From the NCBI GenBank assembly GCA_030633185.1, contig DAOVTG010000001.1:1-61868 (forward strand): 61,868 nucleotides of DNA, written 5' to 3'. Below, piece by piece: positions 20,929 to 49,768 of this stretch. Positions within the stretch are counted from its first letter, which is position 1; each line of letters opens with the position of its first letter. The stretch comes from Deltaproteobacteria bacterium. GTDB lineage: Bacteria; Desulfobacterota; Anaeroferrophillalia; Anaeroferrophillales; Tharpellaceae. A program made the position numbers and the translations under genes. The notes under the pieces are model-generated. The model ran no database searches. It saw nothing but the letters and a program-made list of their open reading frames with translations, and was not told the DNA's origin.

Positions 20929-21019
20929 GACTGGTTTCCGGATTCTCTGCCGGGGTTGTCTGTGTGAGTCTGTGGCTAAAAAAGTAGTTACTTAGAAGCG
21001 CCCAAGGAAAAAATAGATA

Positions 21020-22555: not shown

Positions 22556-22576
22556 CGGTTATGAGACTTTTTTACG

Positions 22577-29666: not shown

Positions 29667-29707
29667 GTTTAATGCCCTCCAAATATGTACAACTTTTTGA
29701 TCCTAAT

Positions 29708-30046: not shown

Positions 30047-30059
30047 TGTTTTTTGCTCC

Positions 30060-30764: not shown

Positions 30765-30774
30765 ATAGTCCTCT

Positions 30775-31656: not shown

Positions 31657-31717
31657 ATATGCCTCTTTTTGGTGTCTGGTTTAGTATATAAAAATTTCGT
31701 AATTTTTTATGGTGGTT

Positions 31718-32116: not shown

Positions 32117-32134
32117 GTCAACTCCTGAGCGAAG

Positions 32135-34477
32135 TTATATCAGTTTATGGGTGTTGAGGATTAAAATCAGTCGTCCATTACCAAGGATTGAAACTCCGTT
32201 GAAAACATCAATATCTGCAAGCACAGGAGGTAAGGGTTTCATAACAATTTCCATGTTGCGAACAAATTTATCCACAATGATACCAAATTCGCTATCTTTG
32301 CTTCTGATAATCACCAGAAAAACCTCATCAAGCTCGTTGAGCTGTTGCCGTCTCCGCTGGCAATCTTTTCCTCCGGTTAACAGTGTGCTAACAAATGAGA
32401 CTGGAAGTACTTTATCACGGTAATGGAACAGCATATTTTCACCTGTACCACGAATTGAGGCCGGGTGAATTTTAATTGCCTCCACAACATTTTCAAATGG
32501 AAGCCCATAGTTGAGTCCGCAAATCTCAACTAGCAAAACCGTGCTAATGCCCATTGAGGCCGGAATTGTCAGGGTTAACAGTGAGCCTTTTCCCGGTTCG
32601 GAACTGACCTTTACATCCCCGTCAAGAGCGTCGATGGAGGAACGCACGACATCCATTCCCACGCCGCGACCGGAAAGATCTGTAGATTTGTCCATGGTAG
32701 AGAGCCCGGCTTTGAAGATAAGGGCAAGAATTTCCGGTTCATCCATACTCTCTACATCAATCCCGTCTTTTTTCGCCTTGGCCTTTAGTTTTTTCTGGTT
32801 AATACCAGCGCCGTCATCAATAATCCGAATAACAATATTACCGTTCTCCTGGCTGGCGGCCAGGGTAATAGTACCTTTCTCTGATTTGCCGGCGGCTCTG
32901 CGGACTTCGGGTGTTTCAATTCCATGATCGCAGGAGTTGCGAATAAGATGGATCATGGGGTCGGTAAGAGTGTCGGCCACTTTTTTATCAATTTCAGTCT
33001 CTTCACCCTGGAAAACAAGATCTATCTGTTTCTTCTTTTTTCTGGAAATATCACGAACAATACGGGTGAATTTTTGAAAAATAGTTTTAATCGGTACCAT
33101 CCGCAGATCCATGATGCCATGATGCATATCATTAACCAGCCGGGTAAAGTCGTGGAGGTTATCGCTTAATGCCTTCATCGCATCACCAGCAATTTTATCA
33201 TCAAGTCCGGCGAGCAGATACTCGTAAGAGTTCCTGCTTACCAACATCTCTCCAATCAGGTTCCCGAAGTTTTCAATCTTTGTTTCATCGACTTTCATAG
33301 TACGTATTTGATTGTTTTTTGAAAGAGCTTGCAAGTCTGCCGCTCCGGCTACTTCCATGATTTTTTGTTGTTGTAAAGCCCGGTCAATATCTGCGGGTTC
33401 AACTTTGCCCTGTTCCACCAGGATCTCTCCCAAAGCTTTCTGCTCTCCCAGCGCGGCATCCACATCTGCCCGGCTGATTTTGCCTTCTGCAACCAGTATC
33501 TCTCCAATTGGCTGTGGCCCTTTGACAAGGCCATCGGCAAAGTTAATAATCTCTTGCAAAGTTTCGAGAAAATCGGTTTCACTGATCTTTAGCATATCAT
33601 TTGCCAGATCAATAAGAAGGGCCAGGGTTGGTAATGAGATCTCCGCAAGAGCTGAAGATATATCGACCAAAGCCAGACTGATAATCTTTTGTTGCTCAGC
33701 GGATAAAGGTGAGATGTTGTTTTCAACAATGATGTCTCGTTGCCGGATAAGCGTTTCTATAAATGTTATCCTGACTTCGTACTCTTCCTTCGCCAGCAGG
33801 ACAAGACTTTCCTGGATCACGGGATCAACAAGCTCAGTTTGTACTCCTGAAATTTTAATTGATCGAAGTTTTTCTACGACCTCTGATTCAGGTTTTTTGC
33901 TGGCAAAAAGATCTTGCAAAGAGCTACCATAATTGACAATGGCATCAATGATTTTGTCAATCTCATGTCCGGTGGTCGAGAGATTACTGTTTTCCAGTTT
34001 CTCAATATCTTCATGGAACTCAGTCAAGGCAAGTTTGACACAAGAGTAGAAGATATGATCAAGCTTCAGCTCTTTGGATGATAAAAGTAAATCTTTTTCA
34101 TCTTGTTGATATGTGGCTTTAAACTGTTCAACAAGTTCAAGGTTGACTACCGGCGAATCACCAATGCTGGCTTTTTGGAGCATGTTTACAATGTAATCAT
34201 TACCTGACAGGGTTAAATCAATAATCTGTGAGGTAACGACAATTTTTTTATTGCGTAAAGCATCAAGCATCCCTTCAAGATGATGGGCAAAATCAGAGAC
34301 CGTTGAGAGGCCAAAAAAACCAGCTGTGCCTTTTACAGTGTGAATCCCTCGGAAAATGGCGTCAAGAATGGAGAGTTCCTCCGGGTTATTCTCAATGAGT
34401 AACAGGTCAGATGCAACTTTTTCTAAAATTTCATTTGATTCTTGAATAAATTCAAGTAATTCATTGTCAGGGTTCAT
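32135..34477 (-). CDS. cheA: CheA histidine kinase, second paralogue, with two tandem MshEN-like 24-25-aa repeats before the dimerisation domain
   Basis: P1 FRGIHTVKGTAGFFG; repeats PIGEILVAEGKISRADVDAALGEQ / ALGEILVEQGKVEPADIDRALQQQ; P4 MIHLIRNSCDHGIE...GRGVGMDVV; P5 CheW-like. Confidence 0.9.
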   Translation of the reverse strand: MNPDNELLEFIQESNEILEKVASDLLLIENNPEELSILDAIFRGIHTVKGTAGFFGLSTVSDFAHHLEGMLDALRNKKIVVTSQIIDLTLSGNDYIVNMLQKASIGDSPVVNLELVEQFKATYQQDEKDLLLSSKELKLDHIFYSCVKLALTEFHEDIEKLENSNLSTTGHEIDKIIDAIVNYGSSLQDLFASKKPESEVVEKLRSIKISGVQTELVDPVIQESLVLLAKEEYEVRITFIETLIRQRDIIVENNISPLSAEQQKIISLALVDISSALAEISLPTLALLIDLANDMLKISETDFLETLQEIINFADGLVKGPQPIGEILVAEGKISRADVDAALGEQKALGEILVEQGKVEPADIDRALQQQKIMEVAGAADLQALSKNNQIRTMKVDETKIENFGNLIGEMLVSRNSYEYLLAGLDDKIAGDAMKALSDNLHDFTRLVNDMHHGIMDLRMVPIKTIFQKFTRIVRDISRKKKKQIDLVFQGEETEIDKKVADTLTDPMIHLIRNSCDHGIETPEVRRAAGKSEKGTITLAASQENGNIVIRIIDDGAGINQKKLKAKAKKDGIDVESMDEPEILALIFKAGLSTMDKSTDLSGRGVGMDVVRSSIDALDGDVKVSSEPGKGSLLTLTIPASMGISTVLLVEICGLNYGLPFENVVEAIKIHPASIRGTGENMLFHYRDKVLPVSFVSTLLTGGKDCQRRRQQLNELDEVFLVIIRSKDSEFGIIVDKFVRNMEIVMKPLPPVLADIDVFNGVSILGNGRLILILNTHKLI

Positions 34478-34481
34478 ATTT

Positions 34482-36059
34482 TCATATCCGTTTTTGAATC
34501 TCTTCTTTCAGCATCTCTCGTTTTAGGGGTTTGTTTAAAAAACCATTTGCCCCGGCATCGTTGGCCAGCTCTTTTTGGGACTGTTCCGACTCGGTAGTGG
34601 CCATAATAATAGGTAGATCTGAATATTGCGGGCGCTTACGCACCTCTCTAATCAGTTCAATACCGTCCATGTTCGGCATATTCATGTCCGTGATCAAGAT
34701 ATCTATTTGAACCCCGGAATCAAGTATCTCTAACGCCTTCTTGCCATCTAAGGCAGTGGTGATCTGGAGCCCCATCTCCTTGGCCGCACCCTGATAGAAA
34801 AAAAGCAGCGCCTTGGAGTCATCAGCGACCAGCAGATGGGTATCAGAAAGGTTAGCAGCGCTCAACGATTGCAAACCTTTCAAGTCGGCGGCGGCCCGGG
34901 TTCCAACCAGCTCTTTCAAGATCTGACTAAAGAGTTCTGTGGCCTCCGGGTCGTTACTGTCGAGTAGACGCTCTATGAGGATTTCGCCTTGTTCTTTATC
35001 TCTGTAGACCAATTCCATAAGATTACTTGAGCGGGTATCGATCATGGTTTGGATGATTAGGCTGGCCTGAATCTCATTTTCATTAAGGCAGGTTTGGAGC
35101 AAATCCGCGATACGCTCATCGGCTTGTTGTTCAAGGCCGGTGATTACGGCCATAAGTAACAGGTCATCTGTCTGTTTTAGACCATCTATCAAAGTTACCA
35201 GACTGCGGGAAGCTGAAATTCTTCCCAGAGCTTCGTAGAGGGCAAACTTTAGATTTGGTTCAAGCTTAGTCCGGCGATAGAGTAGACGACAGGTAAGTCC
35301 GGCTCCTTTAACATCGCCAATCATGCCGATGAGGTTAGCCGCCAGGATACGTTCGTCTTTGTCGCCAGTGGCGAGACAGGATTCCAGAGCAGGCAAGCTG
35401 GTTGTGCCGATGGCCAATATCTGTTCATGACAAATCATCCGCAGGCCGGGATTAAGGTGATGAATCTGTTCAATCAGAAAAGCCAAGGAGTCATCATCTG
35501 GAAAATGGTTAAATTGAGCTAAGGCCAGGCCCGATTTTAGCGAGTCGCTGCCGGTTTTGACTTCAGCCCTAACCACCTCCATCATCATATCTCGGCCAGA
35601 AATATTTTGCATACGTCCGACATGCGCCATAACCGTACCGCTGATGGTAAGATCATCATGGTCGAGATAGGGGAGCAGGATGGTGAAAATTTCGGCTTCA
35701 CTCAACATTGTCAGAGAGCGGATAATTGCAGTTAAAATCTCGATATCATCGCGATTATCAGCCAGCATTTTTTTTAAGTGTGAAAGTGAATCTTCGATTC
35801 CGGAGGCTCCGGCCATTTTTATCGAAAGCAACCGCACTCGTCGACTCTTGGCCGAAAGTCCGCTCACGATCTCTTTTTGCTGACCAGGCAAGAGCACTAA
35901 TAGAGCGTGATAGACCATCTTGTCTACCGCTGGATCGGCCAGGGGCTCTTCATAAATTCGCAGTAGTCCCAGCAGAGCCGTAATATCTGCGGTTTCCTGA
36001 ATCGTGGCGAGCAGGTTGATCTGCTCGATCATATCTTTATCTTTAAAATCAGTTAACAT
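34482..36059 (-). CDS. HEAT-repeat protein with C-terminal receiver domain
   Basis: About 400 aa of alpha-solenoid/HEAT-like repeats, then REC (LLVADDSKALL...ILITDMNMPNMDG...NKP). Confidence 0.75.
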   Translation of the reverse strand: MLTDFKDKDMIEQINLLATIQETADITALLGLLRIYEEPLADPAVDKMVYHALLVLLPGQQKEIVSGLSAKSRRVRLLSIKMAGASGIEDSLSHLKKMLADNRDDIEILTAIIRSLTMLSEAEIFTILLPYLDHDDLTISGTVMAHVGRMQNISGRDMMMEVVRAEVKTGSDSLKSGLALAQFNHFPDDDSLAFLIEQIHHLNPGLRMICHEQILAIGTTSLPALESCLATGDKDERILAANLIGMIGDVKGAGLTCRLLYRRTKLEPNLKFALYEALGRISASRSLVTLIDGLKQTDDLLLMAVITGLEQQADERIADLLQTCLNENEIQASLIIQTMIDTRSSNLMELVYRDKEQGEILIERLLDSNDPEATELFSQILKELVGTRAAADLKGLQSLSAANLSDTHLLVADDSKALLFFYQGAAKEMGLQITTALDGKKALEILDSGVQIDILITDMNMPNMDGIELIREVRKRPQYSDLPIIMATTESEQSQKELANDAGANGFLNKPLKREMLKEEIQKRI

Positions 36060-36083
36060 TAAAAGTCACAGAGGATGGCTAAG

Positions 36084-39029
36084 TTACAATTTGGTTGTGT
36101 TTAATAATAAGATCAAGCGACCATCACCCATAATTGAAGCCCCGCTGATCTCTTCTATATGAGCCAGGGTCTGGGGTAGGGGTTTGACTGCTATTTCCAT
36201 GTTGCGGACAAAACGATCGACAATGAAACCGATGGTGGCGTTACCGATTTTAATGATTACCAGAGAAATTTCTTGAGCCGGATTCAGACAATCTCGATCC
36301 CGGTGTTTGTCCCCCGGTTGGGCTAAGCGATTTTCCAAAAAATCAACTTCGATGACCTGGCCCCGGTAATGAAAGATGAGTCCATCCCCTGCCTTACGCA
36401 GTTCGCTGGGCATAATTTTAATGGTTTCTAAGACATGCTCGAAAGGTAGACCGTAAGACTGGCCGCCTGCTTCAATCAGCAGAATCACAATGATTCCCAT
36501 AGTCATAGGGATGGTCATGGTAAGTTTCGTGCCCGTACCCTCCTCCGAACTCAGTTGGATATGACCGTTCAGCGAATCAATCGTCGAGCGCACGACATCC
36601 ATGCCCACTCCGCGACCGGAGATATTGGTGGCCTGATCCATCGTTGAGAGACCGGCATGAAAGATAAGACCAAGAACTGCGGCTTCATCCATGCCGTCAA
36701 CATCAATACCGGAGTTCATGGCTTTAGCTACAAGTTTCTCTTTATTGATTCCGGCCCCATCATCACTGATCTGGATTATAAGGTTACTACCGAGCTGACT
36801 TGCTGAAAGAGTTACCGTGCCTTTTTTCGCTTTGCCTGTCGCCTCGCGCACTGTCGGAGACTCTATACCATGATCGCAGGCGTTACGGATCAAGTGAATT
36901 AAAGGTTCGGATAGGGTGTCGGCCACCTTTTTGTCGACCTCGGTATCCTCGCCTTTAAGGATGAGTTGGATATCTTTTTTCTGTTTACGGGCGACGTCAC
37001 GAACCACCCGGGTATATTTTTGAAAAATCCCTCTGATCGGGATCATCCGCATGGCCATGATACCATGGTGCATATTTTCTACGAGCCGGGTAAAAAGATG
37101 TAGGTTTTCTTTTAAGGACTTGGTTTGAGCGGCAAGTTCCTGAGCACCATTTATATTCTCCAGGTTATTAATTAAATACTCATAGGAGTTACGTGCCACC
37201 AGAAGCTCACCAACGAGATTGGAGAACTCCTCGATTTTGAGTTCATCAACCCGCATGGTGTGGGTTTCTTTCTCAATCGCCCTGGGCTTCATGGTCTGGG
37301 CAACCTCCATCAGAACCTGTTTTTTCAGGGCTTGATTAACCTCGGCCTTTGCCAGCTTGCCTTGATCAACCAGGATTTCACCGACGGGTTTCTGTTGGGC
37401 CAGGGCTTGAGAGAGATCCTTTTTGCTGACCTTGCCTTGTTCCACAAGGATTTCTCCCAATGGCTTTTGCTGTTCCAGGGCTTCGCTCAAATCCTGGCCG
37501 CTGATCTTACCGTCGGCTACCAGAATTTCGCCCACCGGTTTGGGTTCGCCGGTCAAACCGTCGATGAAGCTGACAATTTCACCAATGGCAGTTACCAGAG
37601 AGGATTCATCTCTATCGAGTGAGTCATGGGCTCGGAGCAGTAGTTTTTTCATGGTTGGTAGATCCACAAAACTACCGGCCCGCTCAAGACCACTCAAGGA
37701 GCGGGTTATGATCTCTCGATCCTCAGAGGCCAGAGGCGAGTTGCTATGCCTGGCCAAAATATCTTTATGCTGCATAACCTGATCGAGAAAAACCTCACGC
37801 ATATCTTCAGGCAGGTTAGCTAGTTCATCCCCGCCGGCAGGGGTTTCATTTGCAGTGCTGTCACGCTCTCCGGCCATAGCCGCTAATTCCTTATAGCCCG
37901 CCGGAAACTCATGTACGGTTTCTCCCTTGGACAATGAGTTAATAAGAGATTTCAGGCCATCCACACCGACCAATAGGAGGTCTATAATCTCAGCATTTGG
38001 TTTAAGCTCGTTTTTGCGGAGACGTACCAGCAAACTTTCCAGAACATGGCCGAAACGGGTGGTTATTTCAAGCTGGAGGTAATCAGCATCGCCCTTGATG
38101 GTATGAGCTCCGCGAAAGAGCTCATCCAGAGCATCTTGGCAACCACTTTTTTCGTAATTGATAACGGCCCGTTCCATGACTTCAATATGCTCTACGGCAT
38201 CGCTTAAAAAGAGGGCAATATCCTCTTCGTCAATTACCGGCAGCAGCATATCGGTTTCGCTATCATCAGTTTCGGCATCGCTGATGTTCGCAGCTTCCAT
38301 TCCCCCTTTACTAACCGCTATCAGGGTCGAGGATAGATGTTCGAGTTCGGTTTGGAGTTCGGTCAGGGGCAGGTTTTCATGGACATCCAACTGTTTGAGC
38401 CGGGCCAGAGTTTTTTCGAGTTTGGCCCCGGCTGAAACTATGGCGCCCAGATCATAGATCTGGGCGCCAGCCACGATAATATGAATTTCGCTATAAAGAT
38501 CATCAAGCAGATCCTGGTTTTGCGAATCGCTCTCAAGCTGGTCGAGGAACTTTCGGGCGGAGACCAAGGCGTCACTGGCCTCACTTATGAACTCTGTCGG
38601 GACGGCAGTTTTTTCACTCTCCTCTTTTTGGGGATTGGGAAAAGAGTTGCTACTTGGTGTTTTCTGGTAGGCGTCACGAAATTGAGTCACTAATTCATCG
38701 TCGCCGACCGGTTCCTCGTCATTTTCAAAAGCCTTAAGCATCAGGCTGATGCGATCAATTCCGGCCAAAATCAGATCTGCAATTTCAGGTTCCAGTTCGA
38801 CCTGATCTTTGCGCAAAGCATCGAGCAGACCTTCAAGGTGATGAGCAAAGCCGGAGACCGCATTTACCTCGAAAGTTCCGGCATTACCCTTGATGGTATG
38901 GATAGAACGAAAGATGGAGTGCATAACATCTTTGTCATCCGGGTTGGCCTCGGCCTGGAGGATATCATCGCTGGCTTTTTCCAGCAACTCTCGCGCCTCC
39001 TCTAAAAATTCTTTTTTAAAATCGTCCAT
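36084..39029 (-). CDS. cheA: CheA histidine kinase, first paralogue, with two Hpt domains and three tandem MshEN-like repeats
   Basis: Hpt1 FRSIHTIKGNAGTF and Hpt2 FRGAHTIKGDADYL; three 25-aa repeats P[VL]GEILVxxGKxxxxxxxxALxxQ; P4 LIHLIRNACDHGIE...GRGVGMDVV; P5. The ATG at 39029 (MDDFKKEF) is 2 nt after the cheY stop; the tracked TTG at 39038 is the alternative. Confidence 0.9.
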   Translation of the reverse strand: MDDFKKEFLEEARELLEKASDDILQAEANPDDKDVMHSIFRSIHTIKGNAGTFEVNAVSGFAHHLEGLLDALRKDQVELEPEIADLILAGIDRISLMLKAFENDEEPVGDDELVTQFRDAYQKTPSSNSFPNPQKEESEKTAVPTEFISEASDALVSARKFLDQLESDSQNQDLLDDLYSEIHIIVAGAQIYDLGAIVSAGAKLEKTLARLKQLDVHENLPLTELQTELEHLSSTLIAVSKGGMEAANISDAETDDSETDMLLPVIDEEDIALFLSDAVEHIEVMERAVINYEKSGCQDALDELFRGAHTIKGDADYLQLEITTRFGHVLESLLVRLRKNELKPNAEIIDLLLVGVDGLKSLINSLSKGETVHEFPAGYKELAAMAGERDSTANETPAGGDELANLPEDMREVFLDQVMQHKDILARHSNSPLASEDREIITRSLSGLERAGSFVDLPTMKKLLLRAHDSLDRDESSLVTAIGEIVSFIDGLTGEPKPVGEILVADGKISGQDLSEALEQQKPLGEILVEQGKVSKKDLSQALAQQKPVGEILVDQGKLAKAEVNQALKKQVLMEVAQTMKPRAIEKETHTMRVDELKIEEFSNLVGELLVARNSYEYLINNLENINGAQELAAQTKSLKENLHLFTRLVENMHHGIMAMRMIPIRGIFQKYTRVVRDVARKQKKDIQLILKGEDTEVDKKVADTLSEPLIHLIRNACDHGIESPTVREATGKAKKGTVTLSASQLGSNLIIQISDDGAGINKEKLVAKAMNSGIDVDGMDEAAVLGLIFHAGLSTMDQATNISGRGVGMDVVRSTIDSLNGHIQLSSEEGTGTKLTMTIPMTMGIIVILLIEAGGQSYGLPFEHVLETIKIMPSELRKAGDGLIFHYRGQVIEVDFLENRLAQPGDKHRDRDCLNPAQEISLVIIKIGNATIGFIVDRFVRNMEIAVKPLPQTLAHIEEISGASIMGDGRLILLLNTTKL

Positions 39030-39030
39030 C

Positions 39031-39387
39031 TCAACCAACCAGCATCTTTACATGTAAAACCAGGGTATTAGGTTTAACCGGCTTGACGATATAAAGATTG
39101 GCTCCGGCCAGGATAGCTTTCTCCTTGTTGGCGGCCTCGGCCTGGGTCGAGATCATGATGATTGGCGTCTCATTATCACTTTGTCGATATTTCTCGACAA
39201 AAACAATACCATCCATATTGGGCATATTGATATCCGAGAGGATAAGATCGTACTTATTGCTCAGGGCTTTTTCCAGAGCTTCGACCCCGTCCATGGCTCC
39301 ATCCGCTTTAAAACCGGCAGCTTTAAGCAAATTTGTATGAAAATTCCTGACAAAACGGGAATCGTCAACTACGAGTACTTTTTTCAT
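39031..39387 (-). CDS. cheY: Chemotaxis response regulator CheY
   Basis: 118 aa, VLVVDDSRFVR, LILSDINMPNMDG, VKP. Confidence 0.9.
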   Translation of the reverse strand: MKKVLVVDDSRFVRNFHTNLLKAAGFKADGAMDGVEALEKALSNKYDLILSDINMPNMDGIVFVEKYRQSDNETPIIMISTQAEAANKEKAILAGANLYIVKPVKPNTLVLHVKMLVG

Positions 39388-39405
39388 AATAAATAGCTCC
39401 GCACA

Positions 39406-39442
39406 GGGTAGAAAGGGTGAAGTGTGAAGGGTGAAGGGTGAA
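39406..39442. repeat. Tandem heptamer array (GGGTGAA-like, about 5 units) in the cheR-cheY spacer
   Basis: GGGTAGAA AGGGTGAA GTGTGAA GGGTGAA GGGTGAA on the plus strand (TTCACCC units on the coding strand), ending 19 nt upstream of the cheY ATG. Confidence 0.6.
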
Positions 39443-39480
39443 AAAATATCCTTTTGTCAAGTTATTGCTGAACTCGCAAG

Positions 39481-40317
39481 TCACTCTTTATAATAGACCA
39501 TGTGGTTGGCAGATTTTTTTATTTTGAAAGCCGGATTAATCCTGGAGGGTGATTCGCTGGAGCCCAGAAAAATAAAACCGCCATTATTTAGAGCCAGATA
39601 ATAGTGATCGACCACCTTTTTTCGGGAAATATTGTCAAAATAGATCAGGACATTACGGCAAAAAATGAAGTCAAAATCACGGCAGGGCCGAAGCTGTTTC
39701 CGATCACTGAGATTGATATGTTTAAACGTCACCATATCTTTGATCTCATCCGTGACTTTGAAGATCCCGGCCTTTTGGGTGAAATAGCGAGTTAGATATT
39801 CTTGGGGTACATCTTTGACACTGCGTCGCATATAGGCACCCTGTTGGGCTTTTTCGAGAATATTCAGATCAATGTCTGAAGCCATAATCTCGACATCCCA
39901 ACGTTGGAGATTCTCTAACATCTCCTTGACGATGATCGCTATAGTGTAGGGTTCCTCGCCACTTGAGCAACCGGCCGACCAGATGCGCAGGGTTTGGTCT
40001 CCAGCTCTCTTTTTTTGTTCGACAATCTTGTCCAGACCAAATTCGGCAAATGAGAGTAGTTGGTTAAAGTCACGGAAGAAATAGGTCTCATTTATCGTCA
40101 GTAAATTGAGGAGTTCCTGGAGTTCATGACCTTGATGATCGTGAAACTTGAGGTGGCGCAGATACTCATCGGTATTGGTTAGATCTAAAGCCACAACTCT
40201 TTTTTCCAGCCGTTTGGCCACATAATAGATCTTTTTTTGTTCGAAACGAATGCCGGCTTTTTGGTAAATCAGGTCGGCAAGTCGTTCAAATTCATCAACA
40301 TCAAGTTCAAATCGCAT
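39481..40317 (-). CDS. cheR: Chemotaxis protein methyltransferase CheR
   Basis: N-terminal helical CheR_N and the SAM-binding core (RIWSAGCSSGEEPYTIA, IFCRNVLIYF). Confidence 0.9.
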   Translation of the reverse strand: MRFELDVDEFERLADLIYQKAGIRFEQKKIYYVAKRLEKRVVALDLTNTDEYLRHLKFHDHQGHELQELLNLLTINETYFFRDFNQLLSFAEFGLDKIVEQKKRAGDQTLRIWSAGCSSGEEPYTIAIIVKEMLENLQRWDVEIMASDIDLNILEKAQQGAYMRRSVKDVPQEYLTRYFTQKAGIFKVTDEIKDMVTFKHINLSDRKQLRPCRDFDFIFCRNVLIYFDNISRKKVVDHYYLALNNGGFIFLGSSESPSRINPAFKIKKSANHMVYYKE

Positions 40318-40337
40318 AGCTTAAAGCTCCACTATAT

Positions 40338-41405
40338 TTACAGTAATTCCTTACAAAGTTCTCGTAAATCTTCATCTTTACTATCTTCCATGATCTTTAG
40401 AATCTGGTCTCGTTCGCCGGCAGCAGCTAAGAGACGAACACCCGGCAGGGCCATGGCCGGATCGTTGTTGGAGATTAAGAGTTGGCCCAATTCATTTAAG
40501 AGTGCAATTTTTAGTTTACTTCCGGCTCCCGATTGGCCCAGGAGTAAGCTCTCTACAGCTTGATAACGGGCCTCGTTTCCGGCTTCCGGGTTACGGATAA
40601 TATCAATGAGCAATTTGAGAATTGTCTCTTCGGCCAGAAGGTCGGGAAAACGTTTTAAGGCATCAGTTAACATATTGCTTACCTCCTCACCATAGAGATC
40701 AAGATCGGTGATTGAGGTGGCGAGCCGGATGATGGCTTCTCGTTCTCCGGCTTTGGCGGTAAGCTCAGTTAGCGGGGCCAGGTAGATGGGGTCAATTTCA
40801 GCACTACCGCCCTCCGGGATCAAGGTTGTGAGAATCTTAGTGATGGCATTGGCATCGGCTACCATCGTCATGGTTTCGAGGATGGCCGCCCGCAGCATCG
40901 GCTCATCACTCTCTTTAAAGAGGGTGACCATGTCGGCGACACCTTCGCTATCGGCCATACAGCCCAGATACTCGACCGCAGTGATCTGGACATTGGGCGA
41001 TTCGTCAAAGAGCCCGGCTCGTATCACCAGCAGGGTTTCATCCGAGCCGATCAAATACATTGCATCAAGCACCAGCTTGCGTACCTCCCGGTCACTGTGA
41101 TCAAGTTTGGAGGTCAGAAAAGCTACTGCATCTTCACCCCCTTCACCGAATATAATCACTGCCCCATTGCGTAAAAAGGCGTCAGTCGACATGAAAAATT
41201 CAAAAATCTGATCATGTACTTGAGTGATGTCAAGTCTCTGCAAGCCTGAAATAATGGCATTTTTCACCGCCACCGATTCCTCTTTGGCCAATTGATAGAC
41301 CAGCGGTACCGCCGCCTCAGCCCGGCCCAGATCAGCCAGATCTTCGGCCGCATAGAGTCGGGTAGCCTCATCCGGGCTTTTAAAATCTTTAATTAACTCT
41401 TCCAT
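40338..41405 (-). CDS. HEAT-repeat protein (PBS-lyase-HEAT-like)
   Basis: Repeated ~30-aa helical units (DEATRLYAAEDLADLG, DAFLRNGAVIIFGEGG, DREVRKLVLDAM, SPNVQITAVEYLG, EPMLRAAILETM). Confidence 0.7.
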   Translation of the reverse strand: MEELIKDFKSPDEATRLYAAEDLADLGRAEAAVPLVYQLAKEESVAVKNAIISGLQRLDITQVHDQIFEFFMSTDAFLRNGAVIIFGEGGEDAVAFLTSKLDHSDREVRKLVLDAMYLIGSDETLLVIRAGLFDESPNVQITAVEYLGCMADSEGVADMVTLFKESDEPMLRAAILETMTMVADANAITKILTTLIPEGGSAEIDPIYLAPLTELTAKAGEREAIIRLATSITDLDLYGEEVSNMLTDALKRFPDLLAEETILKLLIDIIRNPEAGNEARYQAVESLLLGQSGAGSKLKIALLNELGQLLISNNDPAMALPGVRLLAAAGERDQILKIMEDSKDEDLRELCKELL

Positions 41406-41427
41406 TAAAACCTCCTAGTAGAACCTT

Positions 41428-42495
41428 CTAGCCTACTGCACTAATAATCTCATCAGCGATATCCCAACTTGGTGCCACCACGTCAGCTCCGCCTCGTTCG
41501 ATAGCCTCTTTGGGCATGCCGAAGACGATGGCAGTTTCGTCGGATTCGGCGATCGTGCGACCGCCAAGTTCTCTGATTCGAACCATGGCATCGGCACCAT
41601 CATCACCCATGCCGGTCATCAGAACGCCGACGGTATCATCTCCAAATATCTCCATAACCGAGTCCATCATCACCTCTACCGATGGGACAAAGAGATGTTT
41701 GGGACGTACCGGAGTCCGGATAACTAGTTTGTGGCCCGGTCTTCTAAACAGGGTCAGGTGACGTCCGCCAGCAGCTAGATAGATGGTGCCGGGTTTTAGC
41801 TCCATACCGGTCTCGGCATGAACACAGTTCATGGGACAGGCTTGATCTAAACGTTGAGCAAAAGAGGCGGTAAAAGCGGCCGGCATATGTTGAACCATGA
41901 TAATCGCGGCATTAAGATCGGCCGGAATAAAAGGCAATACGTCAAAAATCGTCTTTGGGCCGCCAGTTGATATACCAATAACTATAGCTTTAAAACCTAA
42001 TCCTCTGGTTTTGCCTGCGACCGGTTTGCGGCTTGGCCTGAAGCGTTGTCCGGGGCTACGTTTAGGATCGGTTCGGTGGGGGCGTAATTTGTCCAGGGTG
42101 CCCTGGCTGGTGGCCGCTTTAAGTTTGGCAATAAGTTCTCGGGCGACCTCCTCCATATTAACCGAGACGGTGCCGCCGGGTTTGGCGATATAGTCAAAGG
42201 CACCCAGAGCCATTGACTCAAAAGTGGCCTCAGCTCCCTCCTCGGTCAGGGAAGATACCATAAGAACCGGAGCAATCTTCTCTTCAACAATGATCTGCAT
42301 GGCGCTGATACCATCCAGACCCGGCATATTGATATCCATGGTAATGACATCGGGCCGCAGCTCGCGGGCCTTGGCCACGGCGTCATTACCATCTCGGGCC
42401 GCAGAGATAACTTTGAAACCGCGATCCGATTCAATTATTTTCTTTAAACTCCGCCGCATCAGGGCGGAGTCATCACAAATTAGTACCTTTTTCAT
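41428..42495 (-). CDS. cheB: Chemotaxis protein-glutamate methylesterase CheB (REC plus CheB_methylest)
   Basis: REC (VLICDDSALMRR, VITMDINMPGLDG) and esterase core (IGISTGGP, MVQHMP, MTGMGDDGA). Confidence 0.9.
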   Translation of the reverse strand: MKKVLICDDSALMRRSLKKIIESDRGFKVISAARDGNDAVAKARELRPDVITMDINMPGLDGISAMQIIVEEKIAPVLMVSSLTEEGAEATFESMALGAFDYIAKPGGTVSVNMEEVARELIAKLKAATSQGTLDKLRPHRTDPKRSPGQRFRPSRKPVAGKTRGLGFKAIVIGISTGGPKTIFDVLPFIPADLNAAIIMVQHMPAAFTASFAQRLDQACPMNCVHAETGMELKPGTIYLAAGGRHLTLFRRPGHKLVIRTPVRPKHLFVPSVEVMMDSVMEIFGDDTVGVLMTGMGDDGADAMVRIRELGGRTIAESDETAIVFGMPKEAIERGGADVVAPSWDIADEIISAVG

Positions 42496-42756: not shown

Positions 42757-44715
42757 CTATTCATCTATCTTCATCTTTTTAACTGGTTTTTTTTGGGGTG
42801 CGGTTTTGGCCCGGGGTTTGACCTTTTTCTTCTCCATCGCCGCTATCTCTTTTTTATCATTGGTACTGAGTATCTCATTAATATCAAGCAGGAGAACCAT
42901 GCGTTTGCCTTGGTTGAGTTGACAAACTCCTTCTATAAAGCGGTTTTCGGTGTCACCGGTGACAATGCCTGGAGTCGGGGCGATATCGGCCTTGGGCAGG
43001 CGTAGAACTTCATTGACCTTGTCGACCCGCAGTCCGGTGCGACGGCCTTCAATATCAACGATGATAATTCGGGTGGAGTCATCTTGGTCACGAGATTCGA
43101 GACCAAACAAAGTTCGGATATTAAGCACCGGGATGACATTGCCGCGCAGGTTGGTGACCCCGTCAATAAAGGCCGGAGATTTTGGTACCTGAGTGATCTC
43201 TTCTAAGCGATTAATCTCTTGGACCTGCATGATCCGGACACCATACTCCTCTTTGTCAACAATAAAGGTGACCAGTTGTTCTTCATCCATATCTTTTTGG
43301 GCCAGGCTGATCTCATTTTCAGTTTCGGCATCAGCAGTTTTTTTTACAGCTTCACTCATCTTGCCAAGCTCTTCACTCTCCTCATGGCTGATCAATGATG
43401 ACTCTTCCATGATCATAATCAAGCGTTTGCCATTGTCGAGTTTGGCGACCCCTTTCAACTCTTTTTTGGCTGAGGAAGCAGCCCAGGGGGGGGCATCGAT
43501 AGTCGATTTTGGGATTCGCAAAACCTCGTTTACCGAGTCGACAATGAAACCGACATGAATATCACCCGTCTCCACTACCAGAATGCGCTGGAACTCATTG
43601 ATATTTTTTGCCAGCTTATTCTTGATTGCGATAAATTCTGAGAGGAGAATTTTTTCCAGAGGGGTAATATGCTCTTCGAGATAGAGGACGGCTTCGTCCT
43701 GAGAATGGCTGCGGAGTTTCAGGGCCTCGGCCCCAAACTCATGAAAATTGATGTGGGGGATTCTGATATCATTTATCAGGTCACCGACATCGCCAGAGCG
43801 ATCCTTGGTCAACCATTGACCTAAGGCACATTTAGTCGGATCCAGAGCCCCGTTAAACGGGGCGTTGCTCTGCAAAGACTGTTTAAGATCCTTGAGCCAT
43901 TGTTCATGGATAACCATTATCTCATTGATCTCGTTATGGAACTGTTCTATCAGGGAGGTGTTGCCCAACATGGTCCGCAGATCGAGAATCGGCAGGAGTT
44001 GGTTGCGAATGGTGAGTAGCCCTCGAACATAGTTTGCGGCATTGGGTACTTCGGTAATCTCCCCCACCCGAAGGATCTCCCGCACCCGGTTTATATCGAA
44101 AGCGTACTCCTCGTCTGCGACCTTAAAGGATATAAGTTGTTCTTCATCGATGTTTTTTTCAACCGCATTTATTGCCGTTTTCCCAGCCTGTAGAGCCGCT
44201 TGCTTTTGATCTGACTTAACCTCTTTCGTTTGAACCTGCACAACTTCATCGAGATCCAGGATGAGAATGAGACGAGCCCCATCGTTCATCTTGACTACGC
44301 CGGAGAGGAACTCTCGATCTACCCCTTTGCAAACTGCCGGCGGTTCTTCCATCTGCTCTTTTTTGGTATGCAGTACCTCGCGGACATCATCGACAATCAG
44401 GCCGGTGGCTGTGGTACCAGTTTCAATTACTAATAGTCGGGTGCTGTCATCGGCCTCTTTATGTTCCAGACCAAAACGTTGCCGGCTATTTATGGCGGGC
44501 AACACCGAACCTCGCAAGTTACAGATCCCGGCGACATAGTCGGGGCTCTGGGGAATCGGGGTAATATCCGGTACCCGGACAATCTCCCGCACCGTATTGA
44601 TATCTACGCCAAACTCCTCATCAGCCAGGGCAAAAACCACGAGTTGGCCTTCGGCTGAATCGAGAGATTGGGCGGTTTCCATATTTTCAGACATAATTAA
44701 CTCCGTTTTAATCAT
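42757..44715 (-). CDS. Triple CheW-domain scaffold with a CZB (chemoreceptor zinc-binding) domain inserted in the middle CheW domain
   Basis: Three CheW-like units (QLVVFALADEEFGVDINTVREI, QLISFKVADEEYAFDINRVREI, QLVTFIVDKEEYGVRIMQVQEI). CZB signature H270xxW...C296ALGQW...H321INFH325. An alternative start is the ATG at 44694 (GGAG RBS). Confidence 0.85.
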   Translation of the reverse strand: MIKTELIMSENMETAQSLDSAEGQLVVFALADEEFGVDINTVREIVRVPDITPIPQSPDYVAGICNLRGSVLPAINSRQRFGLEHKEADDSTRLLVIETGTTATGLIVDDVREVLHTKKEQMEEPPAVCKGVDREFLSGVVKMNDGARLILILDLDEVVQVQTKEVKSDQKQAALQAGKTAINAVEKNIDEEQLISFKVADEEYAFDINRVREILRVGEITEVPNAANYVRGLLTIRNQLLPILDLRTMLGNTSLIEQFHNEINEIMVIHEQWLKDLKQSLQSNAPFNGALDPTKCALGQWLTKDRSGDVGDLINDIRIPHINFHEFGAEALKLRSHSQDEAVLYLEEHITPLEKILLSEFIAIKNKLAKNINEFQRILVVETGDIHVGFIVDSVNEVLRIPKSTIDAPPWAASSAKKELKGVAKLDNGKRLIMIMEESSLISHEESEELGKMSEAVKKTADAETENEISLAQKDMDEEQLVTFIVDKEEYGVRIMQVQEINRLEEITQVPKSPAFIDGVTNLRGNVIPVLNIRTLFGLESRDQDDSTRIIIVDIEGRRTGLRVDKVNEVLRLPKADIAPTPGIVTGDTENRFIEGVCQLNQGKRMVLLLDINEILSTNDKKEIAAMEKKKVKPRAKTAPQKKPVKKMKIDE

Positions 44716-44718
44716 TCT

Positions 44719-46644
44719 TTATACATTCTGCATCTCGTCAGCTTGACTGGCGATCTCTTCGATGGCTTCGGCGATATTTTCCATGCCTTTATTGCCTTGA
44801 GTTGCTGCCGTGGAGGCCTCACTTGCGGCCTTAGTCGCAAATTCCGCCGCCTCGGCAATCTCAGCTACCGCCTTATTGACCTGAGCCACAGCTCCCAAGG
44901 CCTGTTTGGCGGTACCATTGATATCCTCAATGCTGGTCTGAACGACATCGGTCTCTTTTTCAATTCGCTCCAGGTTGGAGGAGGATTCTTTGGCATTTTC
45001 CACATCTTGAAGCGAAGTCTTGCCCGCTAGATCAATATCTGCAGCAACAGTGGTGATCTGATCTCGCATCTGGCGTACCATGTCTTTGATCTTGTCAGCA
45101 TTAGTAGATGAATCATCAGCCAAAGTGCGGATATCAGCGGCAACTACAGAAAAGCCGCGGCCAAATTCACCGGCGCGCGCCGCTTCGATGGAGCCGTTAA
45201 CAGCCAACATATTGGTTTGCAATGTAACGTTAACGATTTGATCGACAATTTTGTCAATACGGTTGGTGCGATCCTGAAGGTTTTGGATGTTTCGAGATGA
45301 ATCCAGGGAGGCATTGGCGGCCTTGGAGATGTTGGCGATCAGATTGCCGACATTAACCTTATTGGCGGCCAAAATTTTCTTCAAAGTTTCAATTTTTTCA
45401 GCCGCATCCGTGGACTCTACATCGACATTTTTGGCTCCCTCTTCGACGCGAGATCCCATCTCTATGCATTTTTCAGAAATTTTTGTCTGGTTCTCAGCCG
45501 ATTTGGCGATCTGCTCGATAGCCGCCATAATCTGGCCTGCCGAAGTTGTTGATTCTTCGATGTTGGCGGAGAGCTCTTCGGCGGCCGCAGCCACCTCTTC
45601 CGCCGATTTCTGGGTGTCGGTGGCATTTTTCAGGGAATCGGAGAGTTCTGCGAGCCCTTCGGCAGCGGTCTGCATCTCGGCAAACGCTTTGTTTTGCTCA
45701 TCTAAAGACTTATTGGACTCCTCGCAGGCACTGGCTTGTTCATTGGTTGATCGGCCAATCTCCTCTGCGGCCTTAAAGAACTCGTTGGCACCGTCCAGAA
45801 CCTCCGCAGCTCCTTGATCCACCTTTTTGCTGCCGGTATTTATGGCCAAAAAGATCTCGCTTATCTGATTTAAGTCCTCAGTGATCTGTTTGGATTTTTC
45901 CATCTCTTCACGGCCGGCATTGCCGGAGGCATCCACATCATTAACGACCTGTTGAACCTGTTCTTTGATCTCATCGACCACGTTACGAATGTTACGGGCT
46001 GAGCTTTCTGAAATTTCGGCCAGGTTGCGCACCTCATCCGCAACTACGGCAAAACCGCGGCCATGCTCTCCGGCTCGGGCTGCTTCAATTGCCGCATTTA
46101 AGGCTAGTAAGTTGGTCTGGTCGGCAATGCGGACAACGGTGCCGACAATTTCACCGATCTCTTCAGAATTTTGTTCCAGAACCTTGATCATCTTGGTTGA
46201 CTCAAGATTGCCTTCAACCGATTTTTTAACTCCGGAGATCAAGGTGTCGATGTTTTTATTAATGGAGTCGATCAACTCCTGTAGAGTTGCGATTTTTTCC
46301 AGGTTGGCCTTGCTTAAACCTAAACAGTTCTCGCTGGCCTCCAGGATCTGTTCAATTTCAGTTTTGGAGTTTTCGGCTGCCGAGGCCGCATGTTCAGATT
46401 TGACGGAGATATCTTCCATGTTGCCTGTCAACTCTTCCGAGGAGGCACCAGCTTGTTCCAGAGAAGCCGACATCTCCTCGACTGCCGTTGCCATACGCTC
46501 GGCTAAGGCCTGAGTTCGGGCCAAAGTTCGGGCTTGAGTTTTGGCCTGGGCCTGTTTTTTTGCTGCCGAACGCTTGGCGGCGAGATCTTCGTGGTCTTCG
46601 TTTTTACCGGTAATGCCTGTGGGACGCGCTAGTTTTCTTGCCAT
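44719..46644 (-). CDS. Soluble methyl-accepting chemotaxis protein with two tandem MCP-signal (MA) domains and a basic N-terminus
   Basis: No TM segment. Two complete hairpin tips, [34 protein letters not shown] and [34 protein letters not shown], lie exactly 300 aa apart. The start MARKLARP at 46644 has AAAGGAG upstream. Confidence 0.85.
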
Positions 46645-46754
46645 TTTAAACTCCTTTTTACTCTTTAGATTACGGAAAAGAGGTGGGGGCAATCCCGCCA
46701 TTTTCCTTAAGTTATCGAACTTTTACAAACTGAATAGTTACTTTTTGTTATCTT

Positions 46755-48242
46755 TTACAATATCTGGATACCGCATTCTGCATTGGCTTTACCGCTATCC
46801 AGATCTACGGCGTTGACGGAGAGAACTCCATTGGGGTCGATACTGAAAGTGACATCAATATTGGGCTCTCCTTGGGCTTTCTCTGCGTCCATTTCCAACT
46901 GAAACACACCCAGCGAAGTGAACTCTTCTGACCCTTCATGGCCTCTATCCTGCATGACATGAATAGCGACTTCCGGTTGGTTGTTAGCGGTTGTCGTAAA
47001 AAGTCTGGTCTCAGCGCAAGGGTAGGGGGTGCCTGCGGCGATCAAGGGGATAAAAATGCCTTGATCATCCTCCAAACCAAGATTGTGAGAGGTGATATCG
47101 TGAAATTCCATGCCTGCAATTTCATCGTTCAAAATGCCTGCCAGAATCCCGGCCCCTCGGGCCACCGCTTCATCAGGGTTGACTTGGCGTTTAAAAAGTC
47201 GCTCACGGGTTTCAGCCATGGTCTCCGGATCGGGGCTTAAAAAGCGGCATACCATCTCTTCTACCGCCGGAATCCGGGTGGCACCGCCGACCAGTATGAC
47301 TGAATCCACCCAGTTCGGTTCAAGCTCTGCTCGGGCAAACGTCTCGATTAGATATTTTTCAATATCATGGATAATATCTTTGCTGATCTCGCTGAATTTA
47401 TCCCGACTCAAACTTTGATTCAGATGGATGGGGCCCTCGTCGCTTACAGCAATATAAGGAATCATGACGGTGGTCTCGGTAGAGGAGGAGAGGTCGATTT
47501 TGGTCTTTTCGGCATAAATCACGAGTTGCTGAAAGGCGATCGGGTCGTTACGCAGGTCATAGGGCGAATTAAGGTCGAAAGTTTCAAGGGTATGCTCAAT
47601 AATTTGTCGGTCAAAATTTATGCCGCCAACCGTGGTTGCTCCACCCACCCCACGAACTCTGAAAACTTTGTCGCTGTATTCCATCAAGGTTATATCCAGA
47701 GTGCCGCCGCCCAGATCCAGCACCAAAAGTCGAGCTTGCTCTTGAGTACTGCCCAGGCCATAAGTGAGAGCTGCAGCCGTGGGCTCATTGAGTAATTTGT
47801 GAACTTTGATGCCAGCTATAGTGGCGGCCCGCAGAGTGGCTTGACGTTGATTGTCATTAAAGTAGGCCGGTACCGTGATTACCGCATCGGTGATCTCTTG
47901 CTGCAGGTACTGCTCAGCGCAGTTCTTGAGATGGCTGAGAATTAAAGCTGAAATCTCTTCCGGCAGCAAACTCCGGTCGCCAATTGTATAGGGCTCCGTT
48001 GTCCCCATCATAAGTTTGACATTGCTGACTGTGGAGTCGGCATTGAGTACGGCCTGATTTAGAGCCATTTCGCCGACAATAATCTCCTGTTCAGATTTGA
48101 AACAAACCACTGATGGTGTCGTCCGGCTGCCACGTTCATTCGGGATGATTCGCGGTTGTCCATTTTTGATAAATGAGATCAGGGAATTGGTGGTGCCAAG
48201 ATCGATCCCGACAATTCTTGGCTTCGTCGTTGGTTTAGTCAT
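46755..48242 (-). CDS. Hsp70/DnaK-family protein lacking the C-terminal helical lid
   Basis: IVGIDLGTTNS phosphate-1 motif, VLDLGGGTLDITL, ILVGGATRIP, followed by a beta-sandwich-like region only (about 495 aa). Confidence 0.8.
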   Translation of the reverse strand: MTKPTTKPRIVGIDLGTTNSLISFIKNGQPRIIPNERGSRTTPSVVCFKSEQEIIVGEMALNQAVLNADSTVSNVKLMMGTTEPYTIGDRSLLPEEISALILSHLKNCAEQYLQQEITDAVITVPAYFNDNQRQATLRAATIAGIKVHKLLNEPTAAALTYGLGSTQEQARLLVLDLGGGTLDITLMEYSDKVFRVRGVGGATTVGGINFDRQIIEHTLETFDLNSPYDLRNDPIAFQQLVIYAEKTKIDLSSSTETTVMIPYIAVSDEGPIHLNQSLSRDKFSEISKDIIHDIEKYLIETFARAELEPNWVDSVILVGGATRIPAVEEMVCRFLSPDPETMAETRERLFKRQVNPDEAVARGAGILAGILNDEIAGMEFHDITSHNLGLEDDQGIFIPLIAAGTPYPCAETRLFTTTANNQPEVAIHVMQDRGHEGSEEFTSLGVFQLEMDAEKAQGEPNIDVTFSIDPNGVLSVNAVDLDSGKANAECGIQIL

Positions 48243-48279
48243 TTTAATCAATCAATCCATTATCCAGCTATTCACTAAT

Positions 48280-48669
48280 TTACCAATTTAAAACTGCAAG
48301 ATTTTCCGCAGCTCTCTCATTTTCCGAGTCAATTTTCAGTACCTGTTCAAACATCGCTATGGCTTTTTCTTTGAAACCCAATTCGAAATAGACCAGGCCC
48401 AGGTTGTTCATGGCCTTGATGTTGTTTGGTTGTTGATAATGTACGGCTTGTAAAAAGCCCATGGCATCAATGTAGTTCTCTTTGTTCAAGCAGACCAGCG
48501 CCTGTTGGAACAGATTTTGGATCTGCTGGTCACTTTTTTGTTCTAACTCTTCAATGCGGTGGCGTAAACTTGAAATCTCTTGACTGTTTTCCGGACGCGT
48601 ATCAACTAAGGGCTGGACGCCTTTTTCAAACAGCAACTCTCGAAGAGATATTTTTGCTTTTGCACTCAT
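48280..48669 (-). CDS. Small TPR-repeat protein
   Basis: Coiled N-terminus, then TPR-like units (YIDAMGFLQAVHYQQPNNIKAMNNLGLVYFELGFKEKAIAMFEQVLKIDSEN). The ATG overlaps the parA-like stop (ATGA). Confidence 0.7.
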   Translation of the reverse strand: MSAKAKISLRELLFEKGVQPLVDTRPENSQEISSLRHRIEELEQKSDQQIQNLFQQALVCLNKENYIDAMGFLQAVHYQQPNNIKAMNNLGLVYFELGFKEKAIAMFEQVLKIDSENERAAENLAVLNW

Positions 48670-49424
48670 AATATCTCAATCTTCTGAGTCAGTTTTGCGT
48701 AATCAGAAGCGCCGATACTCTTTTCGTCGTATTCGAAAATTGTTTGACCATGGGCCGGGGCTTCGGCCAAAGTGATATTGGTACGGATGGGAGGTAACAG
48801 TTTGTCCGGGCCAAAAGTTTTCGTGATCTCTTTACCAATCTCCTTGGCCAGTTTGGTGTTTTTATTGTAAAGGGTGGGAATGATGCCGGCCATGCGAAGT
48901 TTCGGATTATAGCTGGCGTTCAACTTGTAAATAACCTGCATCATTTCGGCCAAGCCTTCCATGGCAAGAAAATGCAAAGGCATAGGGATGTAGACCTCGC
49001 GGGCTGCAATAAGGCCGGAAATCATCAATAGCCCCAAGGTCGGCGGCGGATCGATAATAATAAAATCATAATTAACCAACTGGTCGTTCAAATGCTCGGC
49101 CAGTATTATCTCGCTATCTTCCCGGCCGGTATTTTCGAGCTCAAAACCACCCAGTTCACGGGATGCCGGTAAGAGCGAGAGGCCAGCAATATGGCTGGCT
49201 AAAATCACTTCCCCTATGGGCACTCGGTCTAAAAGGACATCGGCCAGGCTGCTTTTGACCATGCCCGGCTTAAAACCCAGACCAATCGTGGTATGGGATT
49301 GGGGGTCGATGTCAACCAATAAGACCCGATGTCCCCGAATGACCAGGCCATGGGCAACATTGACGGCTGTAGTAGATTTCCCACAACCACCTTTACGGTT
49401 GGCAAAGATACAGATTCTGGTCAT
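48666..49424 (-). CDS. ParA/MinD-family deviant Walker-A ATPase at the head of the chemosensory cluster
   Basis: ANRKGGCGKSTTAVNVA (KGGxGKS/T), IIIDPPP Walker B-like. The start MTRICIF at 49424 has GGAGA upstream. Confidence 0.85.
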   Translation of the reverse strand: MTRICIFANRKGGCGKSTTAVNVAHGLVIRGHRVLLVDIDPQSHTTIGLGFKPGMVKSSLADVLLDRVPIGEVILASHIAGLSLLPASRELGGFELENTGREDSEIILAEHLNDQLVNYDFIIIDPPPTLGLLMISGLIAAREVYIPMPLHFLAMEGLAEMMQVIYKLNASYNPKLRMAGIIPTLYNKNTKLAKEIGKEITKTFGPDKLLPPIRTNITLAEAPAHGQTIFEYDEKSIGASDYAKLTQKIEIL

Positions 49425-49652
49425 TTTTTTTCTCCGCAGGTTGACTACAATTTCCGTAAACACTCAGCCTACCTAATGCGTCTGAAATTTCTCGCAAGAG
49501 AACAAACATAATCCTTATTTTACAACATTTTGTGTTGTAATATAAGTAAAAAAAAAGACTAAAATACAACGATAAAACATCTATTAAAACTAGAGGTTTA
49601 AAGAGGGAGAGAGAAAAAGGTTGTTTCATGTTTACTTTTAGAGGTTAGTATG

Positions 49653-49685: not shown

Positions 49686-49768
49686 GGTGAATGATATATA
49701 GTTATGGGATCTTTTTACCTGTCGACTTGCCGTCGACTTGTCTTGGCTCAGAGAGTAAGGAGTTTTTA

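Follow-up and report, generated by a model that had tools for sequence, protein, structure and literature searches.

The closest described relatives of the protein reported here come from two directions. CheW-CZB proteins, in which CheW and the zinc-binding CZB domain share one polypeptide, form one of seven CZB architecture subgroups; according to the text of Perkins et al. 2021 (PMC8262984) they account for 1.4% of 10,140 sequences, are most abundant in Clostridia and have, at the second position of the CZB motif, either Ala or a residue of low conservation. Muok et al. 2023 place both CheW-CZB and '3xCheW' among the known CheW architectures (PMC10653840). A concatenated triple CheW, called CheW3, adjoining DosM, a receptor with a double signalling domain, is the signature of the F9 chemosensory systems (PMC9321776, PMC7534058). 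In Vibrio cholerae, where VC1402 and VC1403 are the CheW3 and DosM proteins (Briegel 2016 as cited in PMC7534058; PMC9321776), the arrays of the F9 systems are cytoplasmic and double-layered (PMC7534058, PMC9321776). Both the signal and the function of the F9 arrays, those of V. cholerae cluster I and its relatives, are unknown (PMC9321776, PMC7534058). Sensors are missing from 98% of DosM homologues, and the arrays, according to the authors of the F9 survey, 'need additional chemoreceptors or sensory proteins' (PMC9321776); the sole sensory domain found on DosM homologues is a CZB domain, in 2 of 78 (PMC9321776 S6 Table). Here we describe a gene in a stretch of 61,868 nucleotides from a Deltaproteobacteria bacterium (assembly GCA_030633185.1, contig DAOVTG010000001.1, positions 1 to 61,868; hereafter the window) whose product, designated CheW3-CZB, is a triple CheW with a ligand-complete CZB domain nested inside its middle CheW domain.

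The CheW profile PF01584 matches this protein with 350 bits over four stretches, corresponding to three CheW domains of which the second is split (Table 1). The database entry is shorter (645 AA) and starts at M8. A first-pass annotation, made from the sequence alone, had described a triple-CheW protein of 652 AA whose middle domain is interrupted by a helical insert of about 120 AA and then resumes. The open reading frame (ORF) list and Pfam agree with it on every one of these points, and scans of the fragments assign profile positions 1-60 to the first half and 69-137 to the second. When the insert is removed in silico, the two halves join into one CheW match of 112.9 bits that covers profile positions 1-137. 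The annotation had placed the insert at 43606-43962, which translates as AA 252-370. The Pfam scan that it proposed as a check on the domain boundaries identifies PF13682 over the whole profile (1-64/64) with 40.4 bits, above the gathering cut-off of 29.4 (E 3.8e-10); the insert scanned by itself reaches 44.3 bits. The CZB motif occurs once, as H270-EQ-W273, 22 residues, C296-ALGQ-W301, 19 residues and H321-INF-H325, an exact match with the residues first listed, and the codons were verified. It includes the alpha-3 motif Cx[LF]GxW in the form C296-A-L-G-Q-W301. The ligand-complete CZB domain nested in the middle CheW domain is genuine, and the zinc site of CheW3-CZB is probably real.

Table 1. 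Features of CheW3-CZB and of its gene cluster, with positions in the window
Feature	Residues (AA)	Position	Strand	Basis
CheW3-CZB gene	652 (product)	42757..44715	-	ORF list; Pfam CheW x3 and CZB
CheW domain 1, intact	22-160	44236..44652	-	Pfam CheW profile 1-135; translation checked
CheW domain 2, N half, ends ...PILDLRTMLGN	191-252	43960..44145	-	Pfam CheW profile 1-60 (AA 193-252)
Nested helical insert, predicted CZB-fold bundle	253-375	43591..43959	-	AlphaFold2; Foldseek 3T9O
Pfam CZB core	270-332	43720..43908	-	PF13682
Zinc-ligand codon	H270	43906-43908	-	checked by translation
Zinc-ligand codon	C296	43828-43830	-	checked by translation
Zinc-ligand codon	H321	43753-43755	-	checked by translation
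Zinc-ligand codon	H325	43741-43743	-	checked by translation
CheW domain 2, C half, starts QRILVVETGD...	376-445	43381..43590	-	Pfam CheW profile 69-137
CheW domain 3, intact	478-617	42865..43284	-	Pfam CheW profile 1-135
Equivalents of E. coli CheW R62, R72, F75, S76	R237, R247, L250, G251			alignment
Equivalents of E. coli CheW N83, N85, T86, V87, V88	N373, F375, Q376, R377, I378			alignment
DosM-like soluble receptor, directly upstream	660 (product)	44719..46701	-	two MCPsignal stretches
Upstream trio: ParA-like ATPase, TPR, truncated Hsp70-like		46755..49463	-	Pfam
Downstream part, CheB to CheA-like (700 AA)		27079..42495	-	Pfam

Structure prediction, also suggested with the annotation, indicates that the split CheW domain should still fold. 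In the full-length AlphaFold2 model (78 homologues; mean predicted local distance difference test score, pLDDT, of 77) low confidence is limited to two linkers and the termini. In the middle CheW domain five strands precede the insert (191-199, 202-207, 211-216, 230-236 and 239-245, followed by a short helix, 246-249) and five come after it (377-383, 386-392, 394-402, 420-426 and 431-436), a pattern that mirrors that of CheW domains 1 and 3 in the same model. The insert itself is composed of four helices (255-283, 297-303, 310-337 and 339-370; pLDDT 86-93). Both junctions are tight in the model: a coil of residues 250-254 leads into the first helix, and a single residue separates the end of the last helix, at 375, from the strand that begins at 377. 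The best match of the full-length model in the PDB is a CheW structure (2QDL, E 1.2e-14), and Foldseek returned only CheW and P5 structures for it, the insert giving weak four-helix-bundle matches. Modelled by itself, the insert (pLDDT 87, predicted template modelling score 0.79) has as its top PDB match 3T9O_B, the CZB domain of DgcZ (template modelling, TM, score 0.68/0.72, root-mean-square deviation 3.2 Å, probability 1.0), at a weak E-value of 0.019; such weak Foldseek E-values are usual for helical bundles. The single sequence of the insert found nothing meaningful among PDB sequences. A profile built from 16 ligand-complete inserts matches the 3T9O sequence (E 7.9e-6) with H, C, H and H falling on the DgcZ ligands. 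The insert is predicted to be a helical bundle of the DgcZ CZB type, around which the two-barrel CheW fold would be kept.

To locate the insertion relative to the known CheW interfaces, the numbering of E. coli CheW (2HO9/6S1K) was used; the halves of the middle domain align to residues 17-76 and 83-157. Since the residues flanking the insert align to positions 76 and 83, the insert replaces the surface loop 77-82 of E. coli CheW. The neighborhood of this loop is functionally marked. F75 belongs to a disulfide pair reporting the CheW/CheW ring contact, N85 lies within 4 Å of the receptor in structure 8C5V, and T86, V87 and V88 are receptor-interface residues according to genetics or biochemistry (PMC13098124, a 2026 review). 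Because the equivalents of N85, T86, V87 and V88 adjoin the insert, the bundle should emerge beside the receptor-contact surface of the middle domain. R237, the equivalent of R62, is invariant in the family. It lies in a motif which diverges in the middle CheW domain of CheW3 proteins (S/T-[LIV]-R-N/G/D; residues 235-238 of CheW3-CZB, in the region 43999-44013). Because domains 1 and 3 keep the canonical NLRG, the middle domain is the divergent one across the F9 scaffold family. A link between the S/T-L-R-N motif and the insert was considered and rejected, as insert-less CheW3 proteins have the motif too and relatives share the divergence with or without an insert.

The same insertion is widespread. 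Homologues of CheW3-CZB number 913 at E<=1e-10; the best 120 are nearly all of about 650 AA, and the closest (90% identity) comes from a Candidatus Desulfofervidaceae genome bin. An insert in the same loop is found in hundreds of homologues of about 650 AA, mostly from Desulfobacterota, and in 119 of 119 non-redundant close relatives. It measures about 120-125 AA in most members and up to about 158. In a wider sample of the family (150 representatives of 50%-identity clusters), 46 carry an insert of 71-137 AA at exactly this site while about 100 have a plain loop of 8 AA, and the plain architecture of three uninterrupted CheW domains occurs in 92. The insert-bearing proteins mostly cluster together in a rough neighbour-joining tree; the neighbour-joining trees used here carry no support values and are read qualitatively. 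In some relatives the same helical insert also occupies the equivalent loop of another CheW domain. In P0125 (768 AA), domain 2 holds a ligand-complete CZB and domain 3 an insert lacking the ligands; P0174 (760 AA) has ligand-less inserts in both domains, and P0170 (673 AA) has an insert in domain 3 only. The CheW loop at the insert site looks like a recurrent acceptor site.

Conservation of the zinc ligands is much more variable than that of the insert and follows a bimodal distribution. Among the 119 close relatives, all four ligands are kept in 27, three in one, two in two, one in 32 and none in 57; 89 therefore retain at most one and only 3 are intermediate. In the wider sample, Cys, His and His are kept in 16 of the 46 insert-bearing representatives. 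The commonest substitute for the zinc quartet in the family alignment is E/D270-T/S296-R321-Y/F325, a combination which may be a 'fossil' of the metal site, held by a salt bridge and hydrogen bonds. The non-ligand core of the domain is nearly invariant in this alignment (W273 in 114/121, G299 in 110/121, W301 in 118/121). In a neighbour-joining tree based on the CheW domains only, the proteins with all four ligands take basal positions and are paraphyletic, with the full site kept across deep branches. In this tree ligands were lost several times independently, including in P0004, sister of the clade of CheW3-CZB, and one large derived clade is wholly ligand-less. Since the four ligands are kept or lost together over deep divergence, the zinc site appears to behave as a selected unit, a pattern that a structural zinc would produce as well. 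Ligand-complete proteins are found in Desulfobulbia, hydrothermal bins of Desulfobacterales, Desulfobacterota bacterium M19, Ca. Electrothrix (cable bacteria) and a Thermodesulfovibrio bin. Ligand-less inserts are found in Desulfonema magnum, Desulfobacter latus, Syntrophobacteraceae, Desulfamplus, KSB1, Fibrobacteres and Calditrichaceae. Insert-less CheW3 proteins occur in Syntrophomonas and on a plasmid of Methylosinus trichosporium OB3b, and the receptor gene adjoins CheW3 in most of these loci; that of Methylosinus exhibits the full DosM-W3-B-HEAT-R-Y-A order.

The gene content and order of the locus mark CheW3-CZB as the scaffold of a predicted F9-class cytoplasmic array. In the Pfam annotation it is the fifth gene of a long minus-strand cluster, which begins with genes for a ParA-like ATPase, a TPR protein, a truncated Hsp70-like protein, a receptor of 660 AA and CheW3-CZB, followed by CheB, HEAT, CheR, CheY and CheA; it continues with HEAT-REC, CheA (780 AA), REC, CheV, HATPase, Hpt, REC and a CheA-like protein of 700 AA. 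The order DosM-W3-B-x-R-Y-A agrees with the F9 orders tabulated for 72 species (PMC9321776 S6 Table) and is kept in dozens of related loci. Pfam finds no domain other than MCPsignal in the receptor, hence no sensor domain, and no other receptor gene in the 61.9-kb window. The receptor carries two hairpin-tip motifs EAARAGExGRGF (AA 206 and 506). Neither the receptor nor CheW3-CZB has a transmembrane-like segment, which fits a cytoplasmic array.

Each of the described systems resembles CheW3-CZB in part. With the CheW-CZB class it shares the presence of CheW and CZB in one polypeptide and the sequence C-A-L-G-Q-W with Ala at position 2. It differs in that the CZB is nested in the middle of a triple CheW and that the family belongs mainly to Desulfobacterota. 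The class is compared here by its textual description: the words 'insertion' and 'inserted' are absent from the main text of PMC8262984, the supplementary text has no CheW entries, and no link from F9 or CheW3 to CheW-CZB is made in the text of PMC8262984 or PMC10653840. Like the F9 CheW3 VC1402, CheW3-CZB consists of three concatenated CheW domains and adjoins a sensor-less receptor with a double signalling domain. The published descriptions and the 72-species table mention neither CZB nor any other insert in CheW3 (PMC9321776); VC1402 is presumably insert-less. The CZB domains of E. coli DgcZ (3T9O) and H. pylori TlpD share with the insert the 3His/1Cys ligands, the Cx[LF]GxW motif and, by prediction, the bundle fold (TM about 0.7). 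However, theirs lie at a terminus and, within a homodimer, control GGDEF or MCP output, whereas in CheW3-CZB both ends of the CZB are anchored in one CheW domain, and identity is only about 18%. Treponema denticola CheWS provides another sensor domain on a CheW scaffold, where input would pass through the baseplate rather than the receptor (PMC10653840). It differs by the nature of its sensor, a C-terminal CheR-like S-adenosylmethionine (SAM) sensor with another fold and ligand, by its single CheW domain, by its membrane-bound F2 array, and in having been tested experimentally. Finally, the DosM homologues with a C-terminal CZB, such as that of Geovibrio thiophilus, also use CZB as the sensory module of an F9 system (PMC9321776 S6 Table), although there it is carried by the receptor and not nested in the scaffold.

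By analogy with the studied CZB proteins, the nested CZB may provide a scaffold-borne zinc or redox input to the F9 array, a reading to which we assign a probability of roughly 0.55. The first-pass annotation had already suggested that a redox or zinc signal would act on the array scaffold instead of on a receptor, which is plausible; it had noted neither the F9 setting with its sensor-less receptor nor that CheW-CZB was a catalogued class. The bundle would bind one Zn2+ through H270, C296, H321 and H325, and, on the model of TlpD and DgcZ, loss of zinc or oxidation of the Cys-Zn bond would rearrange it. All CZB proteins studied to date, DgcZ and TlpD among them, have a regulatory zinc site (PMC8262984, PMC6715182). 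In TlpD, loss of zinc ligation (one His-Zn bond) moves about 45 residues by 4-5 Å (bioRxiv 10.64898/2026.01.16.699579, a crystallography preprint), and a meeting report describes Salmonella McpA as a reader of redox potential that works by way of zinc speciation (PMC12422006). The ends of the bundle are predicted to pass nearly without linker into CheW strands bordering the receptor-contact residues and the ring-contact residue equivalent to F75. Because both ends are anchored beside receptor-contact residues, a rearrangement should affect how the receptor is bound or how the ring packs, that is, the hold of the middle CheW on the receptor tip or on its ring neighbors, and in turn kinase coupling or the cooperativity of the lattice. 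The scaffold would supply the zinc or redox input to the array, since the receptor of the cluster is a sensor-less DosM-like rod, and the idea of sensing is strengthened by the position of CheW3-CZB next to this receptor. As the only sensory domain found on DosM homologues is also a CZB, this domain has been recruited independently to F9 systems. As for the signal, hypochlorous acid (HOCl) is the CZB ligand studied in host-associated bacteria; it is unlikely to be the physiological signal here, because the closest named relatives are Desulfobacterota of sediment and hydrothermal samples, including HyVt bins. More plausible candidates, in our view, would be oxidants of any kind, sulfur species or the availability of zinc. 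A stronger version is doubtful: in this lineage the scaffold would be the primary sensor of intracellular zinc or redox state in the F9 array and would itself switch receptor coupling or lattice cooperativity, and the ligand-less E/D-T/S-R-Y relatives would be 'locked-state' salt-bridge versions of it. If true, it would provide a first candidate input for F9 systems, whose function is not known, and the family would offer a natural series of sensing and locked forms for comparison.

Several observations weigh against zinc sensing by the scaffold. The 89 relatives with at most one ligand nevertheless keep the insert. Since about three quarters of the close family have lost the ligands, the conserved role of the insert cannot be zinc sensing, which is applicable only to the ligand-complete subset, CheW3-CZB included; the insert has a zinc-independent role, and the zinc of CheW3-CZB itself could be purely structural. 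The insert also changes faster than the CheW domains, with a mean pairwise identity of 31% versus 64-70%; it evolves more slowly than the first inter-domain linker (14%) and at about the rate of the second (27%). Ligand-complete and ligand-less forms occur in the same gene context, which singles out no sensing subset. The known CZB domains signal as homodimers (PMC8262984), and PMC8262984 and PMC10653840 report no experiment on a CheW-CZB protein, only a count or a listing.

In a rival reading the insert would be structural: a CZB-derived spacer, a CheW3-CheW3 cross-link or a stiffener of the F9 baseplate, with zinc a mere staple. The insert and its non-ligand core are conserved whatever the state of the ligands, the E/D-T/S-R-Y combination could occupy the metal site through hydrogen bonds and a salt bridge, both states occur in an identical gene context, and some relatives carry ligand-less inserts in the same loop of the third CheW domain. 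Retention of the four ligands together over deep divergence implies selection, although a structural zinc would predict likewise. The regulatory nature of the site in every CZB protein studied and the CZB nature of the only sensory domain of DosM also point away from a purely structural role, which we consider a serious but lesser possibility. The insert might instead serve as a docking site for another product of the cluster (HEAT, truncated Hsp70-like or ParA-like ATPase), positioning or chaperoning the array rather than transmitting a signal. In most insert-bearing loci the ParA-like, TPR, Hsp70-like and HEAT genes flank DosM-CheW3, and Treponema CheWS offers a precedent for an extra CheW-fused domain at the baseplate, yet that domain is a SAM sensor, not a docking module (PMC10653840). 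However, the insert-less Methylosinus CheW3 cluster also includes HEAT and ParA genes, and matches to ParA-like and Hsp70-like proteins are likewise present at the Syntrophomonas loci, which have no insert. Because they are present at insert-less loci, the candidate partners are independent of the insert, and docking appears improbable. An artefact, whether a mis-assembly, the joining of two genes or a linker motif that arose by chance, can be set aside as practically negligible: the ORF is unbroken, the architecture recurs in hundreds of independent assemblies, among them complete genomes such as that of Desulfonema magnum, the Pfam score exceeds the curated cut-off and the structure model is confident.

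The combination of CheW and CZB is already catalogued, CheW3 is named, and the family is abundant in databases. Literature searches, including those for CheW in cable bacteria and for CZB with DosM, returned no description of a CZB in CheW3. Three aspects appear undescribed in the literature searched: the nesting of a CZB in one particular loop of the F9 CheW3 middle domain, the existence of a large Desulfobacterota-centred subfamily with nested CZB, and the decay of the zinc site in most of its members. What is new is the topology, the connection with F9 and the loss of ligands, not the kind of system; for chemotaxis specialists it represents a useful lead to the F9 input rather than a surprise. 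A zinc or redox sensor in the F9 scaffold, near the receptor-contact surface, is a concrete and testable candidate. If it is confirmed, it would be the second case of CheW-borne sensing after spirochete CheWS and the first nested inside the CheW fold. The ligand-complete, ligand-less and insert-less CheW3 proteins constitute built-in controls for biochemistry and cryo-tomography.

The remainder of the cluster and its surroundings also show several particularities. The truncated Hsp70-like protein (498 AA) is devoid of the C-terminal lid region, and the TPR protein is small. Where the contig of a related locus reaches far enough, the trio, whole or in part, mostly precedes DosM there as well; it may position or assemble the cytoplasmic array. 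Downstream, the region 27079-39038 (minus strand) encodes three CheA-like kinases. The largest, of 984 AA, is encoded at 36084-39038 and has two Hpt stretches; the others measure 780 and 700 AA, the last giving no match to the dimerisation domain in the Pfam scan. The same region includes CheV, HEAT-REC and stand-alone Hpt and HATPase ORFs and is far more elaborate than the published F9 core.

Beyond the cluster, a divergent operon (49691-53074, plus strand) includes genes for a protein with a hemerythrin domain, a hybrid histidine kinase bearing several receiver stretches and a diguanylate cyclase of the REC-GGDEF type. It is possibly an O2- or iron-sensing cyclic di-GMP module beside the chemosensory cluster. 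Upstream of the cluster, the region 10057-24418 (plus strand) is a dense run of two-component genes encoding hybrid kinases with PAS domains (one of them with a Tll0287-like domain), a REC-HD-GYP-like protein (HD_5) and a PAS-REC-Hpt protein. The ORF 16168-17541 (plus strand, 457 AA) gave no Pfam match at E<=1e-5. Over positions 16001-18000 the GC content dips to 0.365, compared with 0.43-0.50 elsewhere.

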